Positions 13,560-21,082 of a DNA stretch of 64,000 nt are shown here, in pieces (the stretch's first letter is position 1; every line of letters begins with the position of its first letter). Under the pieces are notes generated by a model. That model was given only the letters and a program-made list of their open reading frames with translations, made no database searches and had not been told where the DNA came from. Source of the DNA: an uncultured delta proteobacterium (lineage in GTDB: Bacteria > Desulfobacterota > Binatia > UBA9968); assembly GCA_963771465.1 (NCBI GenBank), contig CAVYTU010000013.1:1-64000 (forward strand). The letters are read 5' to 3'. The position numbers were made by a program, and so were the translations under genes.

Positions 13560-14423
13560 ATGTTGCCGCAATTTCTCGCCTTCGTCACGGCCATTTGCTA
13601 CGCCGCCGCATTGGTATTTTCTCGGCGCGGCTTGAAATACTCGACGCCCGATACCGTCACGCTGATTTCGATTCTCGTGCAAAACGTCACGCTCTGGCCG
13701 GCGGTGTTTCTCACCGGCGGGGTGCCAAACGTTTCTTGGGTGGCGGTGGGGATCTTTTGCATCGTCGGGACTTTTCAAATGGGCGTGCGCCTGTTCGCCT
13801 ACACCGGGGTGCTGAAGATCGGCGCCTCGCGCAGTAGTTCGCTGCAATCGATCAGCCCGCTGTTCAGCGCGACGATCGCCATCACTATTCTAAAAGAACC
13901 GGTCACGATCCTGATCGTCGTCGGCACGCTGTTGGTGGTGTGCGGCATCATGCTGGTTTCCTGGAAGGCGGAGCGCGAGCTGGCGAGCTTTCGCTGGTGG
14001 CATCTGCTTCTGCCGATCGCTGCGGCCTGCTTGACGGGAATAAATCATCCGCTCCGGCGTTACGCATTTAGTCTTTCCAATGAGCCGTTTTTTTTCTCGG
14101 CGTTCATGGGTTTGGTTTCTTTGGTAGGCTTTTCCATCTACCGGTCGGTATCACCGCGGCGCCAAAGTCTTAAGTGGAATCGCGCCGGGCTCTGGCCGTT
14201 CTTCTGGACCGGCGTATTCGAAACATTTTCGATTGTCTTCATCATGACGTCGCTCAGCTTGGGCCGAGTGGTGGTGGTCGTGCCGATCGCGGCGACCTAT
14301 CCGGTCTGGGCGCTGATCGGCGCAAAATTATTTCTAAGCGATGTTGAGAAAATAACGGCGAAGGCCGTGATCGGCATTTTCAGCGTCGTCGCCGGCACCG
14401 TGGCGATTCATATGGGAAAATAG
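13560..14423 (+). CDS. EamA/DMT family transporter
   Basis: 287 aa, about ten hydrophobic segments in two repeats, IGASRSS..QSISPLF...ILKE motif. Confidence 0.85.
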   Translation: MLPQFLAFVTAICYAAALVFSRRGLKYSTPDTVTLISILVQNVTLWPAVFLTGGVPNVSWVAVGIFCIVGTFQMGVRLFAYTGVLKIGASRSSSLQSISPLFSATIAITILKEPVTILIVVGTLLVVCGIMLVSWKAERELASFRWWHLLLPIAAACLTGINHPLRRYAFSLSNEPFFFSAFMGLVSLVGFSIYRSVSPRRQSLKWNRAGLWPFFWTGVFETFSIVFIMTSLSLGRVVVVVPIAATYPVWALIGAKLFLSDVEKITAKAVIGIFSVVAGTVAIHMGK

Positions 14424-14572
14424 ATTGCGGCGGCGAAAATGATTTTACCGCGATGCACACAAAGGACGCAAAAAGGAAGGTGGCTCCAGGTTTTGGTCAA
14501 TCCCCGATCGTTTCCAGGTCCGCTTGTCATGATCAAGTGCGTCACATAAGATCGCTCGTCGGAGGTGATCGC

Positions 14573-15199
14573 GTGAAAATCTACGACATATCTCTAACCC
14601 TTTCGCCCCAATCGATCCGTTGGATCACCGCCCAACCGCTTGAGTTGATCGAACGCAAGCGCATGAGCCGCGGCGACTCCAACAATTCGTCGTCCATACA
14701 CACGAGCGTCCACGCCGGCACGCACGTCGACGCGCCGTTTCACTTCGTGCCCGACGGCATCACGATCGAATCGTTGCCGCTGGAAACTTTCATCGGTCCG
14801 GCGCGAGTCTGCGCCGTGAAGCCGGGCACGCATATCACCGCGGCGGACGTTGTTGCGGCAGGATTGCAGGGTGAGACGCGGGTGCTGTTCAAGACGCGAA
14901 ACTCAACTTTATTAAAAGTCGGTGTCTACGACGCGAGCTTCGCGCCGTTCTCGGTCGACGGCGCGAAGGCGCTGGTCGATCTCGGCGTGAAGCTGGTTGG
15001 CATTGATTATCTTTCGGCCGCTGGCGCCAACGAACAGGTGCCCGTGCATCGCGCTTTCTTAGATCGTGGCGTGATCTTGCTCGAAGGCGTCGATCTGTCT
15101 GAAGTGCCGCCGGGGCGTTACGAGCTTTTCTGCCCGCCGGTGAAACTCGCCGGTTCCGACGGCGCGCCGTGCCGAGCGGTGCTGAGAGATCTCGCTTGA
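14573..15199 (+). CDS. Cyclase family metallohydrolase (kynurenine formamidase-like)
   Basis: HAGTHVDAPFHF, LVGIDYLS, H..FL, GSDGAPCRAV; GTG start at 14573 after GGAGGTG. Confidence 0.88.
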   Translation: MKIYDISLTLSPQSIRWITAQPLELIERKRMSRGDSNNSSSIHTSVHAGTHVDAPFHFVPDGITIESLPLETFIGPARVCAVKPGTHITAADVVAAGLQGETRVLFKTRNSTLLKVGVYDASFAPFSVDGAKALVDLGVKLVGIDYLSAAGANEQVPVHRAFLDRGVILLEGVDLSEVPPGRYELFCPPVKLAGSDGAPCRAVLRDLA

Positions 15200-15282: not shown

Positions 15283-16143
15283 ATGACGAGATTTCAACCT
15301 TCGATCATCGTTCACGGCGGCGCGGGGCCGATCAAAGACGACAGCCTCGCGGCGCGGCTTGAGGGCTGTAAAGCAGCGGCGCTGGCGGGCTGGAAGATTT
15401 TACAAGATGGCGGCGCGGCGCTCGATGCGGTTGAGGCCGCGGTTGTCATGCTGGAAGACAATCCACTTTTCAACGCCGGCACCGGTTCGACATTAAATAA
15501 TCTTGGCAATGTCGAGATGGACGCGGCGATCATGGAGGGACAAACCTTGCGCGCCGGCGCCGTGGCGGCCGTTGCGGGAATTAAAAATCCGATAATGCTC
15601 GCGCGCCGCGTCTTGGAAGACGGGCGCCACGTCATGCTCGCCGGCGATGGCGCATTATTATTCGCTCGGCAAGTCGGTGTTCCCCAGTGCGCGCCGGAAG
15701 CGTTGATTGTCGAGCGGGAGCAAAAACGCTGGGAGAGCAAACACGGCACGGTCGGCTGTGTTGCCTTCGATGCCGACGGCAAGCTCGCCGTGGCGACATC
15801 GACCGGCGGTATATTCAATAAGCTGCCCGGACGAGTCGGCGATTCGCCGCTGATCGGCTGCGGCACATACGCAGACGATTACGGCGCGGCATCGTGCACC
15901 GGCCACGGCGAAGCGATCATGCGCTTGGTTCTGGCCAAGCGCGCCGTCGATAATTTGAAGAACGGCAGTGACGCGCAAACCGCCGCTACGCTTGCCATGA
16001 CTGATCTCGAAGACGATCGCATCCAAGCCACCGGCGGCATAATTCTGATCGACCGCTTTGGCAAGATCGGCTACGCGCGCAATACGACGCATATGCCGGT
16101 GTGCGCGATTTCCGGCGCGGCGCACGTCGTTTCGGTGAGTTAA
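15283..16143 (+). CDS. iaaA: Isoaspartyl peptidase / L-asparaginase (Ntn hydrolase)
   Basis: IVHGGAG, FNAGTGS, EMDAAIM, autocleavage site G-TVG, ATSTGG, GRVGDSP, TGHGE. Confidence 0.9.
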   Translation: MTRFQPSIIVHGGAGPIKDDSLAARLEGCKAAALAGWKILQDGGAALDAVEAAVVMLEDNPLFNAGTGSTLNNLGNVEMDAAIMEGQTLRAGAVAAVAGIKNPIMLARRVLEDGRHVMLAGDGALLFARQVGVPQCAPEALIVEREQKRWESKHGTVGCVAFDADGKLAVATSTGGIFNKLPGRVGDSPLIGCGTYADDYGAASCTGHGEAIMRLVLAKRAVDNLKNGSDAQTAATLAMTDLEDDRIQATGGIILIDRFGKIGYARNTTHMPVCAISGAAHVVSVS

Positions 16144-16169: not shown

Positions 16170-17120
16170 ATGGTCATCGATTTTGAACATCACTATATTC
16201 CCGCCGAACTCGGCCGGCGTTTGGGCATGGATCCGACGAGGAAAGATGCCGTGCGCACCGGCGATGCTTCGATCCACTCGCAGTTATTCGATCTGACCGC
16301 GCAGATTCGTGACATGGATCGCGCGGGGATCGATATCGCCGTGCAAAGCTGCATTATCGGCTGGGACACGACGCTGGAGAATTGTCAGTTGCTCAACGAC
16401 TGCACGGCGCAGCTGCAACACGATTATCCGAAGCGTTTCGTCGGTCTGGCGCACGCGCCGGCGTTGGAAGCAGCGGGATTGCGCGAACTCGAACGCGCGG
16501 TGAGCCAACTGGGATTGAAAGGCGTGACGATCTCGTCGCAAATAAATGGCCTCTCGCTCGACGCTGAGGAATTCACTCCGCTTTACGAATTGGTAAAACG
16601 ACTTGACGTGCCAATCTTCGTCCATCCCGCGCTGGGACCCAAGGGTTACGAGCTGATGAAAGACTACATGCTGCCTGTCATTCTCACGCGGGAGTTCGAT
16701 CTCGGTGTCGCGGTAACGCGCATGATCGCCGGCGGGGTTGTTGAGCGCTATCCCGAGCTTCGCTTCGTGTTTGCGCACTTTGGCGGCGGTTTGGCTGGAT
16801 ACAAAGAAAGAATTTCGCGCTCGTCCTATCGCTTCAAACTGCCCAAGTCGTTCGACGATTATTTCAATCAGCTCTATTTCGACATGGCGGGATTCGAAGG
16901 CAGCCCGATCGCGCTGCGCTGCGCGCTGGAGGTCATCAAGCCGGAGCGAATGGTTTTTGCCACCGACTATCCGCAGAATTTCAATAATAGCGACCCGAAA
17001 CAGGGGAAAAACATCGACGGCGTCAACGAATATGTTGACGAGATTCGCCGTTTGCCGCTGGATGCCAGCGTAATAGAAAACATGCTTGGCGGCACGGCGG
17101 CGCGGCTGTTGAAATTGTAA
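16170..17120 (+). CDS. Amidohydrolase-2 family protein (ACMSD-like)
   Basis: IDFEHH, PIFVHP, AHFGGG, FATDYP. Confidence 0.85.
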   Translation: MVIDFEHHYIPAELGRRLGMDPTRKDAVRTGDASIHSQLFDLTAQIRDMDRAGIDIAVQSCIIGWDTTLENCQLLNDCTAQLQHDYPKRFVGLAHAPALEAAGLRELERAVSQLGLKGVTISSQINGLSLDAEEFTPLYELVKRLDVPIFVHPALGPKGYELMKDYMLPVILTREFDLGVAVTRMIAGGVVERYPELRFVFAHFGGGLAGYKERISRSSYRFKLPKSFDDYFNQLYFDMAGFEGSPIALRCALEVIKPERMVFATDYPQNFNNSDPKQGKNIDGVNEYVDEIRRLPLDASVIENMLGGTAARLLKL

Positions 17121-17148
17121 GGGCGCAATCGACTCAGTGGAGGTAGTT

Positions 17149-17739
17149 ATGCTCAGAATTAACGGTGTCTCGAAAGAAGATGCGCCGCAAGAAGTACGGG
17201 AGGTTTTCGCAGCGCAGGAAAAACAATACGGCGCGATCTTGAACACCGCCAAAGTCTACGGTTTGCGGCCGACGATACAAAAAGGCGTACAGGCGTTGCA
17301 GGCAGGGATCGTCGCATCGGGTTTGATCAGCGCCGAGCTGCGCCACCTGCTTTGCATGAAGGCTGCCAGCATCAACGGTTGTCCGTATTGACTGGACATC
17401 AACGCATCCAGTGGGATGCAGCATGGCGCGTCGGCCGAGAAGCTGGAAGCGGCGTTGGGCGATTACAAGAAGAGCGCAGTCTTTTCGTCGCGGGAAAAGC
17501 TAGCGTTGGAACTTTGCGAGCGGATGACCTACACCAACAAGCGCGTCACCGATCGTTTTTTCAACCGGCTTAGGAAAAGTTTTTCCGAAGAAGAAATGGT
17601 CGAGTTAGCCGCGATCATCGCGTTGGAAAATTTCCGCAGCAAGTTCAACCCGGTGTTCGCCGTTGAGGCGCATGGCTTTTGTCCCGTGCCGGCGGTCAAA
17701 CAAGGCGCCGCCGAGGCGGCGCGCAGGTTTCATGAATAG
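17149..17739 (+). CDS. AhpD/carboxymuconolactone decarboxylase-family protein with in-frame UGA, probable selenoprotein (CPYU), 196 aa
   Basis: ORFs 17137-17391 and 17416-17739 share a frame and are separated only by TGA at 17389-17391. Read-through gives LRHLLCMKAASINGCPY-U-LDINASSGMQHG...FSSREKLALELCERMT...FSEEEMVELAAIIALENFRSKFN, a complete AhpD-like sequence. ATG at 17149 follows GGAGGT. Confidence 0.85.
17392..17419 (+). promoter_or_regulatory. Candidate bacterial SECIS element
   Basis: Perfect 6-bp stem GCATCC (17404-17409) / GGATGC (17414-17419) with AGTG loop, starting 12 nt after the UGA. Confidence 0.65.
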
Positions 17740-17810
17740 GGAAAAGACGATGGACGTCGGCGCGAGCGCTTTCCATTCTCATGAATCAAGAGTTTTGGCA
17801 TGAGGATATA

Positions 17811-18776
17811 ATGATTCGAATCAAACTCATTGGACATGCCGTGATGGTTGTCGGCTTCATTTTGGCGACGCAATCAGCTTACGCTGCCGCTGCGCCGACC
17901 AAGGTGACGATTCATGTGCCCTCCAAGAGTTTGTCGATCATGCCGTATTATTTGGGCAAGGATAAAGGCTTCTTCGCGGCGGAAGGGATAGAGCCGCAGC
18001 TAGTCATGATGGCGCCGCCGACGGCGATCGCGGCGATGGTCGCGGGCGAGTTGGATTTTTCATCGACCACCGGCGCAGCGACCTCGGCGATCATGCGCGG
18101 ACTGCCGCTCAGGCGCGTATTCTATGTTCAGCAGGATCCGGTCCACGTGCTACTGGCGCAGCCGGAGATCAAATCGGTTGAAGCATTGATCGGCAAAACC
18201 ATCGGCGTGACGGCCTTAACCGACGCCGTGGGCATGTCGGCCAATGTGATTCTGCGCGCCCATGGTATTGAAGCCGGAAAAGTTACTTTGTTGGCGATGC
18301 AGGTCACCGACAACGCAATCAAGTCGCTAACAAGCAAAAGAATTGCCGCGACTTTGCTGGCGCCGCCCTATGTCGAAGAGCTGGAAGCGAAGGGTTACGT
18401 CAAGATCGCCGAGGCTCGAACTTACGCTCCGCTAAGTTTCATCGGTCTAGTGAGTTCCCAGGAGACCATGAAGAAAAATCCCCAGAAGGTTCAGGGTATG
18501 GTTGGCGCGTTACACCGGACCATGAACTATATCCTAAATCCGGCGAATCGAGCCGAAGTGGTGCAGTACGTTTCAATCTATCACAAGATCGATCCGCCGC
18601 TCGCGGAGAAAGCCTTCACGGCGCAGATGTTGGGTTACAGCAAAGACGGCACCAAGCCACGCGCGGCGGTGGAGAAAGAAATTGAAATTTATCGCGAGAC
18701 GCTGAAGATCGCGAAGACTTTCACGCCGGATGACTTGGAAGACATGAGTTGGCTGAAGTTGGTAAAGGGACGATGA
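17811..18776 (+). CDS. ABC-type substrate-binding protein, NMT1/THI5/SsuA-like
   Basis: Signal peptide, KGFFAAEGIE, AMVAGELDF, LIGKTIGV. Confidence 0.85.
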   Translation: MIRIKLIGHAVMVVGFILATQSAYAAAAPTKVTIHVPSKSLSIMPYYLGKDKGFFAAEGIEPQLVMMAPPTAIAAMVAGELDFSSTTGAATSAIMRGLPLRRVFYVQQDPVHVLLAQPEIKSVEALIGKTIGVTALTDAVGMSANVILRAHGIEAGKVTLLAMQVTDNAIKSLTSKRIAATLLAPPYVEELEAKGYVKIAEARTYAPLSFIGLVSSQETMKKNPQKVQGMVGALHRTMNYILNPANRAEVVQYVSIYHKIDPPLAEKAFTAQMLGYSKDGTKPRAAVEKEIEIYRETLKIAKTFTPDDLEDMSWLKLVKGR

Positions 18777-18904: not shown

Positions 18905-19924
18905 TTAGCGGCGATAATTCTCACTCCCCCAGATCTCTTTCAGAAAGCCACTCTTCTCAAGATTGTTCACGAAGCTGTTGTCGTAGATCTCTTCCGGCTT
19001 TTTTCTGATTGGACTGCCGCTTTCGCGGGCGAGGTCGACGGTTTCGGCGACCGCTTTGGCTGGGACGATCATGGTGCGATCAAGGATTTCCTTAGCGTAG
19101 ACGTCGTAGGCGGACTGGAGCGCTGCCGGGTCATTCGTGCGCATGGCTTTAGCCACAGACGCTTTGGCTTTGTCGGGATTCTTTTCAACGAAGTAGATGA
19201 TTTCGGCGAAGGCGGCGACCATGCGCTGGACGATCTCGGGGCGTTCCCGCAGCATTTTATAACTGGTGTGGAGCGAGCTGTAGATGAACGGTAAATTCAG
19301 ATCGATCAGGCGATACATTACATTGTAGCCTTCGTTCTTTGCTCGGACATCGAGCGGCGGCGTGATGATCACGCCGTGGACGATGCCGGCTGCCATCGCC
19401 TGATAACGTTCGCCTTGGCTACCGCCGATGGGTCGGATCGTGACTGCGTCAGCAGCTAGGCCCAACTTTCGTACCACCGCTCGCGACAGCCGGTCGCTCA
19501 AGTCTCCGGCGCGCGCGATCCCTAAGGCTTTGCCCTTCAGATCTTCCGGCCGCCGCACCTCTTTTCTGGTCACCAAAACATACGGCAGCTTTACGAGCGG
19601 GGACGCGACGATTTTCACATCAAGTCCCGCCGCCATTCCTGGAATGATCGCGTCCGAAGCGCAGTAAGTGAACTGTACTTCGTCGGTTGCCAAAGCGGTC
19701 AAGTTTTGGGCGCTGCCGCGGATAAAGATATTTTCCAACTTGACGCCGTACTTGTCGAACAGACCATTGTCGAGGGCCGTGTAGAGATGGATGAACCCGC
19801 CTGACACGGCGCACGTAGAAACTCTCATCGAAAGCGGCCGTTCACCAGGTTTGGGCAGATAAGGATTGGCGAAGCTAGCGGTGGTAACTAGAGAGAGTAG
19901 GAAAGCGAAAATTCCTATCTTCAT
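18905..19924 (-). CDS. ABC-type substrate-binding protein, NMT1/THI5/SsuA-like
   Basis: Likely start MKIGIFAFLL at 19924 (signal peptide); GLFDKYG, DLKGKALGI, DNSFVNNLEKSGFL. Confidence 0.85.
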   Translation of the reverse strand: MKIGIFAFLLSLVTTASFANPYLPKPGERPLSMRVSTCAVSGGFIHLYTALDNGLFDKYGVKLENIFIRGSAQNLTALATDEVQFTYCASDAIIPGMAAGLDVKIVASPLVKLPYVLVTRKEVRRPEDLKGKALGIARAGDLSDRLSRAVVRKLGLAADAVTIRPIGGSQGERYQAMAAGIVHGVIITPPLDVRAKNEGYNVMYRLIDLNLPFIYSSLHTSYKMLRERPEIVQRMVAAFAEIIYFVEKNPDKAKASVAKAMRTNDPAALQSAYDVYAKEILDRTMIVPAKAVAETVDLARESGSPIRKKPEEIYDNSFVNNLEKSGFLKEIWGSENYRR

Positions 19925-20122
19925 TAGCGCGAACTTTATGCCAAGTCCGCCGAGCTTGTAAAGTGTAAACATAGTTGCGCGCCTTGACGCCGTGCCATGG
20001 GCTGACCTATTTATGAATCGATCTCGTTGCCTAGCCGCGCGCGGTCGAACGCTAATGTGCCGCGGCGTGAGTCGCCAATTGGCTACCGGCGAAAAAGGTG
20101 CGCGGGAAGTGAGGAGCGATCC

Positions 20123-21082
20123 ATGCTGAAATACCGTACCGCTATGCTCGGTGCCGTGCTGGTGGCCGTAGCGCTTGTTGGCCACGCTCCGAGTATTCTT
20201 GCACAGACACAGAAAATTCGCATTTCGCTGTCGAGCCGGAGCAATACCAACACGACCTACTACGTCGCCCAGGCGAAGGGAATTTTCAAAGACGAAGGGT
20301 TGGAAGTCGAGTTCATCCAAGTCAATCCGCGGCTTGGTGCGATGGCGGTTTTGAACGGCGACGTGACTTTTACGACTTCGTTCGTCAGCACCTTTCGCGG
20401 CGTCGTCCAGGGGCTGCCGATGAAGACTGTCTTCGTCTTGCTCAAGAAAGGCATTTACCACCTGATGGTGCGGCCAGATATCATCAAGGATGTGCAAGAG
20501 CTTAAGGGTAAAAAGCTTGGCGTGACGGCCGTCAACGGCGGCGATCATATCATCGGCCGCGAATTGTTACGGATGAAAGGCATCGATCCGAATCTCGTGC
20601 AGGCGATCGCCGTGGGCGACCCGGCATTGCGCGCCCAGGCGGTTCTATCCAACCTCGTTCAAGCCGTCTCGGTGTCGCCGCCGCATGATATCATGCTGCA
20701 ACAACAAGGGCTGAAGGCGGTCTCGGGCCCGCCGGAGATCGGGGTGCCGTCGTCGGGTTTGTTCGCCTCGGATAAGTTGATCAAAGATAATCCGCAAATA
20801 CTTCGGCGCGCCATCCGAGCCGCGCTCCGAGCGAACAAATTTATCGATGCCAACCGCGAAGAGACGATTCGCATCATGGCCAAGGCGGTGCCGCAGTCTC
20901 TGGAAGCGGCGGCGCGGTCTTACGATATCGAGCTGAAACAATTGGCCAGAGACGGCCTGATGACGGATGCCGAAATTGAATTCCAGATGGACCGGCTCGC
21001 CGAGAAGCGCCGGCCGCTGGATGAGGTGCGCGATTTTTCATTTGCGCGACAAGCGTTAAAGGAATTGGAGTCGGGAAAGTAA
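20123..21082 (+). CDS. ABC-type substrate-binding protein, NMT1/THI5/SsuA-like
   Basis: ATG at 20123 after GAGGAG; signal peptide; KGIFKDEGLEVE, ELKGKKLGV. Confidence 0.85.
   Translation: MLKYRTAMLGAVLVAVALVGHAPSILAQTQKIRISLSSRSNTNTTYYVAQAKGIFKDEGLEVEFIQVNPRLGAMAVLNGDVTFTTSFVSTFRGVVQGLPMKTVFVLLKKGIYHLMVRPDIIKDVQELKGKKLGVTAVNGGDHIIGRELLRMKGIDPNLVQAIAVGDPALRAQAVLSNLVQAVSVSPPHDIMLQQQGLKAVSGPPEIGVPSSGLFASDKLIKDNPQILRRAIRAALRANKFIDANREETIRIMAKAVPQSLEAAARSYDIELKQLARDGLMTDAEIEFQMDRLAEKRRPLDEVRDFSFARQALKELESGK

Follow-up and report, generated by a model that had tools for sequence, protein, structure and literature searches.

The locus considered here raises the question of whether an in-frame TGA ends one small gene and precedes another, or is decoded as selenocysteine (Sec) within a single gene. 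The stretch analysed (the window) comprises positions 1 to 64,000 of contig CAVYTU010000013.1 (assembly GCA_963771465.1) from an uncultured delta proteobacterium of the class Binatia (UBA9968). On its forward strand, the frame that opens with ATG at 17149 and closes with TAG at 17737–17739 is interrupted by TGA at 17389–17391, and the next ATG, at 17416, lies in the same frame. Under translation table 11 the frame falls into an open reading frame (ORF) of 80–84 residues and a second of 107 residues starting from ATG 17416. Read through, with TGA translated as U, it gives a complete gene (17149–17739) of 196 codons plus the TAG stop, with the motif ASINGCPY-U-LDINASSGMQ. A Shine–Dalgarno-like GGAGG, read from the sequence, is located at 17139–17143 (+), 5 nt upstream of ATG 17149. 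An earlier note on this DNA had described two same-frame ORFs parted by this single TGA, which the sequence confirms, and had interpreted them as one selenoprotein of the AhpD/CMD family, with Sec at residue 81, that gene callers split. Judged from the sequences, the gene very probably does encode a 196-residue selenoprotein of the AhpD/YciW branch of the CMD fold, with UGA81 read as Sec and with a likely function as a thiol/selenol oxidoreductase. The selenoprotein reading is preferred because the UGA is conserved, distant relatives carry Cys at its position, the stretch following the UGA is coding, a downstream hairpin is constrained and the genome contains the Sec machinery.

Related loci were collected by scanning one genome per species. 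The scan yielded 74 loci, mostly from metagenome-assembled genomes (MAGs) labelled Candidatus Binatia, Deltaproteobacteria or Thermodesulfobacteriota. The column homologous to codon 81 (17389–17391, +) was placed by tblastn; 70 of the 74 loci could be aligned across it and four had no alignment there. The codon is TGA in 64 of the 70 alignable loci and TGC in the other six, which are the most distant (30–40% identity); TAA, TAG or TGG was found in none of the 70. The alignment of homologues proposed in the earlier note thus gave Cys or TGA at this column and neither of the other stop codons. For codon analysis, 64 sequences with full flanks were used (the window and 63 of 65 loci; L077 and L083 lacked flanks). 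Eight that were not in frame in an ungapped alignment were dropped (L052, L076, L078, L079, L080, L082, L084 and L085) and one duplicate was removed, leaving 55 unique full-length sequences, all 55 with TGA at codon 81. At the 69 conserved codons with at least four synonymous choices the mean entropy in this set is 1.58 bits, and the silent sites have therefore turned over many times and are near saturation. The UGA is separated from the next ATG by eight codons (LDINASSG; 17392–17415, +) that vary almost only at third positions, for example ATC/ATT/ATA at codon 82, GAC/GAT at codon 83, ATC/ATT at codon 84 and AAC/AAT at codon 85, and are therefore translated.

These observations bear directly on the simplest alternative, in which the TGA is a true stop and a split CMD protein is made from two small genes of 80 and 107 residues, the second initiated at ATG 17416. 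Gene callers annotate the locus in this way: 116 of the 120 database proteins among the matches listed are C-terminal pieces of 107–131 residues. ATG 17416 is also retained in 55 of 55 sequences; its conservation can be attributed to its being part of the 3′ arm (GGAUGC) of the hairpin described below. A true stop followed by a separately initiated gene would, on the other hand, explain neither the exclusive use of TGA (64 of 64, never TAA or TAG, despite saturated synonymous sites) nor the coding pattern of the 24 nt between TGA and ATG. The earlier note had seen no obvious ribosome-binding site for the second ORF, and inspection of the sequence before ATG 17416 likewise revealed no Shine–Dalgarno comparable to GGAGG at a proper distance. 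The Cys-type relatives, furthermore, are single chains with Cys at the column. We therefore consider two separate genes very improbable. Since 116 of the 120 listed entries are C-terminal pieces, the split is the work of gene callers, and the column, the machinery, the hairpin constraint and these database fragments all agree with the earlier proposal of one selenoprotein gene. The N-termini of 64 related loci align starting at residue 1. In public protein sets the 107-residue tail bears the name `hypothetical protein' or `alkylhydroperoxidase family enzyme', and in a few entries W stands in the place of Sec. This mis-annotation is found almost everywhere, so that selenoproteome counts for these soil lineages are too low.

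A pseudogene or an assembly error, i.e. a CMD gene with a nonsense mutation or a miscalled base, would also produce a single in-frame stop, and the eight related loci that were dropped from the codon set had frameshifts or extra stops. The same codon is nevertheless found in 64 independent assemblies, with strong purifying selection on both sides of it. Logan contigs of independent public runs span the site, and none of the difference rows listed falls at 17389–17391. Of the explanations considered, this is the least probable. Contigs from RNA libraries cover 17052–17202, 17359–17545 (including the UGA and the hairpin), 17442–17693 and 17579–17799; they indicate presence in RNA libraries rather than a single transcript, a strand or a level, and the uncovered parts are uninformative. 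Extra stops or indels in the ungapped translations of L052, L076, L078, L079, L080, L082 and L085 may represent assembly errors or decaying copies.

Cys-containing relatives were sought by searching 1.84 billion cluster representatives exhaustively with HMMER, which returned 3138 matches at E ≤ 0.001. Only four of these reach 1e-30, and all four are fragments of the same TGA-bearing clade (the Sec clade). The nearest proteins without the stop are at most 38% identical. Four `full-length' database proteins were examined as possible close Cys forms and rejected, as three (P0002–P0004) have W at the site and one (P0036) has a frameshift. Residues were compared in an alignment of 23 TGA-bearing sequences of the Sec clade with 39 Cys-type relatives (≤38% identity). 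The U81 column is TGA in all 23 of the former and Cys in 38 of the 39 latter. The Sec clade thus appears from these sequences to be distinct and apparently free of Cys forms.

The genome (6.9 Mb, 99.4% complete) encodes the means to decode UGA as Sec. The genes selA, selB and selD are adjacent (G000:C14:197541–201637), and selA, selB, tRNA-Sec (selC) and selD all score above their cut-offs, so that the four genes proposed for checking in the earlier note are all present. The tRNA-Sec lies on the window's own contig (76.7 bits versus a gathering score of 47; anticodon TCA). The selD gene has an in-frame TGA of its own in the context AAG-U-AAKLGP and itself encodes a selenoprotein. Among 151 genomes of the class, 42 contain a relative at E ≤ 1e-20, and 46 of 52 matches contain at least one TGA. 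SelA (E ≤ 1e-30) accompanies the TGA-bearing match in 37 of 38 genomes and is present in 114 of the 151 overall; the genomes are related, so these counts are not independent.

Decoding of the TGA as Trp, Cys or Gly, by an altered code or near-cognate read-through, would leave the gene intact without Sec. The W at the site in P0002–P0004 fits this idea, in that the TGA there has been read by another code, some pipelines having used TGA=Trp. No relative, however, has TGG at the column, and the distant ones have TGC. The frame of a paralogue on contig C9 of the same genome (L096) ends with TGA after RRFHE, at the position of the TAG that closes the gene in the window, so that in this genome TGA serves as a stop as well. 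The complete Sec system with its Sec-containing SelD and the near-constant company of SelA also argue against a standard amino acid, and such decoding is judged to be as improbable as the two-gene arrangement.

Downstream of the UGA lies a hairpin that resembles a minimal bacterial selenocysteine insertion sequence (SECIS; 17404–17419, +). It consists of a 6 bp stem GCAUCC/GGAUGC (GCATCC at 17404–17409 and GGATGC at 17414–17419 in the DNA) closed by an AGUG loop (AGTG, 17410–17413), with a 12 nt spacer after the TGA. The stem, loop and spacing had been recognized in the earlier note and are borne out by the sequence and by RNAfold, in which the hairpin is both the minimum-free-energy and the centroid structure. 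Hairpins of this specification (a perfect stem of at least 6 bp starting 10–15 nt after the TGA, with a loop of 3–6 nt and G in one of its first two places) follow 952 of the 213,185 TGA trinucleotides in the genome (0.45%). In the 55 sequences codon 86 is restricted to GCA and GCG, so that an A–U or G·U pair is kept; TCC is found at codon 87 in 53 of 55, AGT at codon 88 in 45 of 45 and GGG at codon 89 in 38 of 38. Codons 88, 87 and 86 have the first, third and fifth lowest entropies among the 69 conserved codons. Ser codon 88 is fixed as AGT, thereby keeping the GU of the loop, whereas AGC is preferred at Ser codon 74 (36:5). In an alignment of 57 distinct sequences the stem pairs in 95.6% of cells, compared with 16–52% when the 3′ partner is slid by 1–3 columns. 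This codon usage shows that the hairpin is under constraint at the RNA level beyond what the protein requires. In the divergent locus L084 (43% identity) a different stem of 7 bp with a GGGC loop is found 13 nt after the TGA, at nearly the same offset, and in the three other CxxU genes of the genome a stem of 5–7 bp with a G-containing loop of 3–6 nt lies 11–14 nt after the UGA. The minimal fdhF element of Escherichia coli has an 11 nt spacer. The present hairpin shares with fdhF-type elements its position shortly 3′ of the UGA within the coding region, the G/U in a small apical loop and a similar spacer (12 nt); it differs in having a 6 bp stem and a tetraloop without a conserved lower stem or bulged U. 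A conserved lower stem was sought by eye and with RNAfold and was not found. As a very small SECIS, the element could serve studies of recognition by SelB.

Several results weigh against the interpretation of the locus as a selenoprotein gene with a SECIS. Covariation in the stem is not significant, the observed score being reached by 138 of 500 shuffles: four of the six pairs are invariant, one varies only to G·U and one shows a single compensatory change (L075) against 15 breaks. For a possible seventh pair the corresponding counts lay between 36 and 139 of 500 shuffles according to the measure used, and for further pair types the count was 393 of 500. The seventh pair (columns 15–32) was rejected, with UA in 13 sequences, CG in 12, UG in two and no pairing in 30. 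The folding energy of the 40–60 nt stretch is no better than that of shuffled sequences (z of 0.15 and −0.12); for the region together with four relatives z ranges from 0.15 to −1.22, none significant. An Rfam scan of 17100–17800 with E values up to 10 gave no SECIS model and only chance-level matches to suhB and ZEB2_AS1_2. The class-wide counts refer to any TGA within a match and are not fixed to the CxxU column. One genome (G136, 99% complete) has a TGA-bearing match with neither SelA at E ≤ 1e-30 nor SelB above the cut-off. Finally, the redox mechanism and the nucleophilic position of Sec proposed below would follow from homology and from the literature on Mycobacterium tuberculosis AhpD. 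In our reading the hairpin is a real element, whose strong conservation leaves little power to a test of covariation. The match in G136 (C125:26–526, 34% identity) lies at a contig edge and might be explained by wrong binning of the contig, by a pseudogene or by sel genes missing from the assembly.

The read-through protein matches the Pfam family CMD (PF02627) with 40.5 bits against a cut-off of 23. An AlphaFold2 model calculated from the 62-sequence alignment is all-helical (mean pLDDT 96.4, pTM 0.91). In a Foldseek search of the PDB the top matches were to the debrominase Bmp8 (PDB entries 6ohj and 6ohi; TM 0.77–0.81), followed by the peroxidase-related proteins 2prr, 2pfx and 2oyo (TIGR01926-type), the Deinococcus radiodurans AhpD-like protein 6k40, mlr4105 and PA0269; TM values for Bmp8, 2prr, 2pfx, 2oyo and 6k40 span 0.75–0.85. 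Profile and sequence searches of the PDB sequences agree with this ranking. A likeness to 4-carboxymuconolactone decarboxylase (PcaC) was considered and rejected, as 4g9q and 2q0t gave E values of only 0.7–1.3 and TM ≤ 0.38. The best NCBIfam model is NF053654, `YciW-related (seleno)protein' (GroundWater_YciW), with 167.4 bits and E = 2.6e-49. The alignment runs end to end (residues 1–173 against positions 1–172 of a 179-position model), and the model name indicates that Sec forms have already been curated. The score lies below the equivalog cut-off of 310, as it does for L096 and L084, which suggests a sister subfamily rather than membership; TIGR01926 likewise scores below its cut-off (49.1 versus 81.8 bits). 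By these scores the protein is placed as a sister of the curated (seleno)protein families NF053654 and TIGR01926 and a member of neither, and since both models miss it a curated model for the clade is missing.

That the class of protein is not new had been stated in the earlier note, and rightly so. According to the available text of the sources, AhpD-like CxxU selenoproteins have been on record since 2005, with finds from the Sargasso Sea (PMC1088965, PMC1794560, PMC2398784), `AhpD-like 1' accounted for 299 genes in GOS with 902 Cys homologues and ranked among the most abundant prokaryotic selenoprotein families (PMC2398784), and the family is listed as CxxU in reviews (PMC9312934, PMC13188914). 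CMD-like, `distant AhpD homolog' and `AhpD-related' CxxU families are described there as well (PMC2398784, PMC9312934, PMC13188914). Binatia is nowhere mentioned in the available text of these sources, and the term `Binat' has no occurrences in that of PMC13188914 and PMC13326102. With the AhpD-like CxxU family (COG2128/YciW, TIGR01926), as it is portrayed in those sources, the present protein shares the CMD/AhpD fold, a CxxU motif with Sec at its second position, the existence of Cys homologues and a length of about 180–200 residues. Unlike that family as portrayed, it belongs to a separate clade with its nearest Cys forms at ≤38% identity, and it occurs in soil-type Binatia/Deltaproteobacteria MAGs rather than in marine samples. 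The result is thus a distinct clade added to a long-known and abundant AhpD-like selenoprotein family; it is of use chiefly for annotation and for its very compact SECIS, and knowledge of Sec decoding and of AhpD chemistry is unchanged.

A mechanism can be proposed for decoding and for function. SelB carrying Sec-tRNA(Sec) would bind the hairpin and deliver Sec to the ribosome at UGA81. The product would then act as a thiol/selenol oxidoreductase in which C78-x-x-U81 cycles between the selenol/thiol and selenenylsulfide forms. In the redox motif C78-P-Y-U81 (TGT CCG TAT TGA; 17380–17391, +), C78 is invariant in the Sec clade (23 of 23) and is shared by 36 of the 39 Cys-type relatives. E116, which may serve as an acid/base partner of the C78/U81 centre, is Glu in 22 of 23 and 35 of 39, respectively. 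Two further Cys residues are candidate resolving or relay residues. C178, in the C-terminal GFC motif (codon at 17680–17682, +), had been regarded as an extra residue; since all 23 Sec-clade sequences and 27 of the 39 Cys-type relatives have it, it is instead a feature of the family. C69 (17353–17355, +) is specific to the Sec clade, where it is Cys in 22 of 23 sequences; in the 39 Cys-type relatives the column is not conserved (S/Q/N/A/T), and Cys is not among its six commonest residues.

The motif of M. tuberculosis AhpD is CxxCxxxH, and Sec81 presumably occupies the position of the second, attacking Cys of its CxxC. In both proteins (1knc and 1gu9 for AhpD) the same helix turn carries a CxxC-type redox centre and a Glu, here E116, is conserved, and the chemistry expected by analogy would be peroxiredoxin or peroxide reduction via a disulfide or selenenylsulfide. 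They differ in that AhpD has Cys rather than Sec, in that the structural match is weak (TM 0.46–0.53, Foldseek E of 0.5–0.9) and in that Asn85 (23 of 23 in the Sec clade) takes the place of the His. The substitution of Asn for the usual His had been pointed out previously; the Asn is indeed there, but His is not the rule in this subfamily, the Cys-type relatives having N in 14, G in nine, H in eight and S in four of 39. A role towards peroxide or a peroxiredoxin is taken as the default, and another electrophile is possible.

The surroundings of the gene bear on this last point. The upstream neighbour is an Amidohydro_2 gene (16170–17120, +; PF04909, E = 1.6e-33) that ends 28 nt before the selenoprotein gene, and the downstream neighbour, 41 nt after it, encodes an NMT1/SsuA-like solute-binding protein (17781–18776, +; Pfam NMT1, E = 8.3e-23). 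Further upstream, Pfam matches identify an EamA transporter (13560–14423, +), a cyclase/arylformamidase-like gene (14453–15199, +) and an Asparaginase_2 gene (15283–16143, +), each likely to belong to the same operon and partly conserved in related loci; the NCBIfam matches of these three genes were all below their cut-offs. Two NMT1/SsuA-like binding proteins (17781–18776, +, and 18905–20548, −) were considered as SaoX, the binding component of the Sec-assisted organometallic (SAO) system, which was rejected because their scores, 26 and 54 bits, lie far below the cut-off of 300; the likeness to SaoX is probably at the level of the family. Amidohydro_2 matches in the window lie at about 16359, 27857, 28929, 34766, 52174 and 55503, and the genome is also rich in NMT1/SsuA-like binding-protein genes.

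The neighbourhood raises the alternative that the gene product, although truly a selenoprotein, serves not in general peroxide defence but as a dedicated redox or dehalogenase-like partner, similar to Bmp8, in a catabolic operon of the amidohydrolase and binding protein. The row from EamA to the NMT1 binding protein is on one strand with tight gaps of 26–83 nt. An Amidohydro_2 gene immediately precedes the selenoprotein gene in 22 loci and an NMT1 gene follows it in 19, all in the closest clade (scored at ≥70% identity between neighbours, loci with short flanks not being scorable). Two paralogues also follow amidohydrolase genes (L097, with CEYU, after Amidohydro_2 and L096 after Amidohydro_3), and the RNA-library contig 17052–17202 bridges the amidohydrolase/CMD junction, although a two-gene contig alone does not prove one transcript. 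The arrangement is not kept in divergent TGA-bearing relatives, whose flanking ORFs (63 scanned, at 35 loci) are spread over many unrelated families, and adjacency to Amidohydro_2 is not rare, because the 6.9 Mb genome has about 138 matches to this family, six of them in the 64 kb window. The adjacency is therefore suggestive but not strong. A catabolic rather than antioxidant role, as put forward in the earlier note, keeps its footing in the neighbours conserved in the closest clade and loses it in the divergent relatives and in the abundance of Amidohydro_2.

Bmp8 itself, a thiol-dependent tetrabromopyrrole debrominase of the CMD family, is the top structural match over the full length and is also matched by phmmer (E = 1.6e-10), with its G-C-M-Y-C aligned to G-C-P-Y-U. 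The mechanism proposed for it involves oxidation of its Cys residues to a disulfide, according to the available text of PMC5577590. The identity, however, is 23–24%, Bmp8 uses Cys, AhpD-type proteins score almost as high in Foldseek, and Pfam searches of the neighbours revealed no halogenase or other bmp-type genes nearby. A dedicated operon partner is accordingly an unlikely though not far-fetched role for the selenoprotein. A more specific proposal, somewhat more doubtful still, is that the Sec clade constitutes an obligately selenium-dependent Bmp8-like reductase (a dehalogenase, or an enzyme acting on another carbon–heteroatom bond), the substrate of which would be imported by the NMT1/SsuA-like protein and processed by Amidohydro_2. 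If this were true, soil bacteria of the `Binatia/Deltaproteobacteria' type would have recruited selenocysteine into catabolic operons several times.

The genome contains four CMD-family CxxU genes, including that in the window. The paralogue L096 (G000:C9:221643–222230; L096:1501–2088) is 64% identical to the window gene, has the motif CPYU and lies directly after its Amidohydro_3 neighbour; its hairpin has a GCAUC/GAUGC stem and a CGGGGC loop. L097 (G000:C15:854728–855081; L097:1330–1905) shares 24% identity and stands directly after another Amidohydro_2 gene, with a hairpin of 7 bp and a GGC loop 13 nt after the UGA. Its CEYU motif makes it the Sec-containing equivalent of the CEYC-type relatives L090–L092. 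The third, L098 (G000:C13:134889–135218; L098:1889–2218), is a 109-residue CMD-domain gene with CDPU, followed 11 nt after the UGA by a hairpin with a CCUUGC/GCAAGG stem and a GGAC loop. A class-I methyltransferase gene lies just before it and GFA and GST genes lie after it; L098 resembles known methyltransferase-associated AhpD-domain selenoproteins. A further CMD-domain match, at G000:C11:199526–199762 (−), contains an in-frame TAG.

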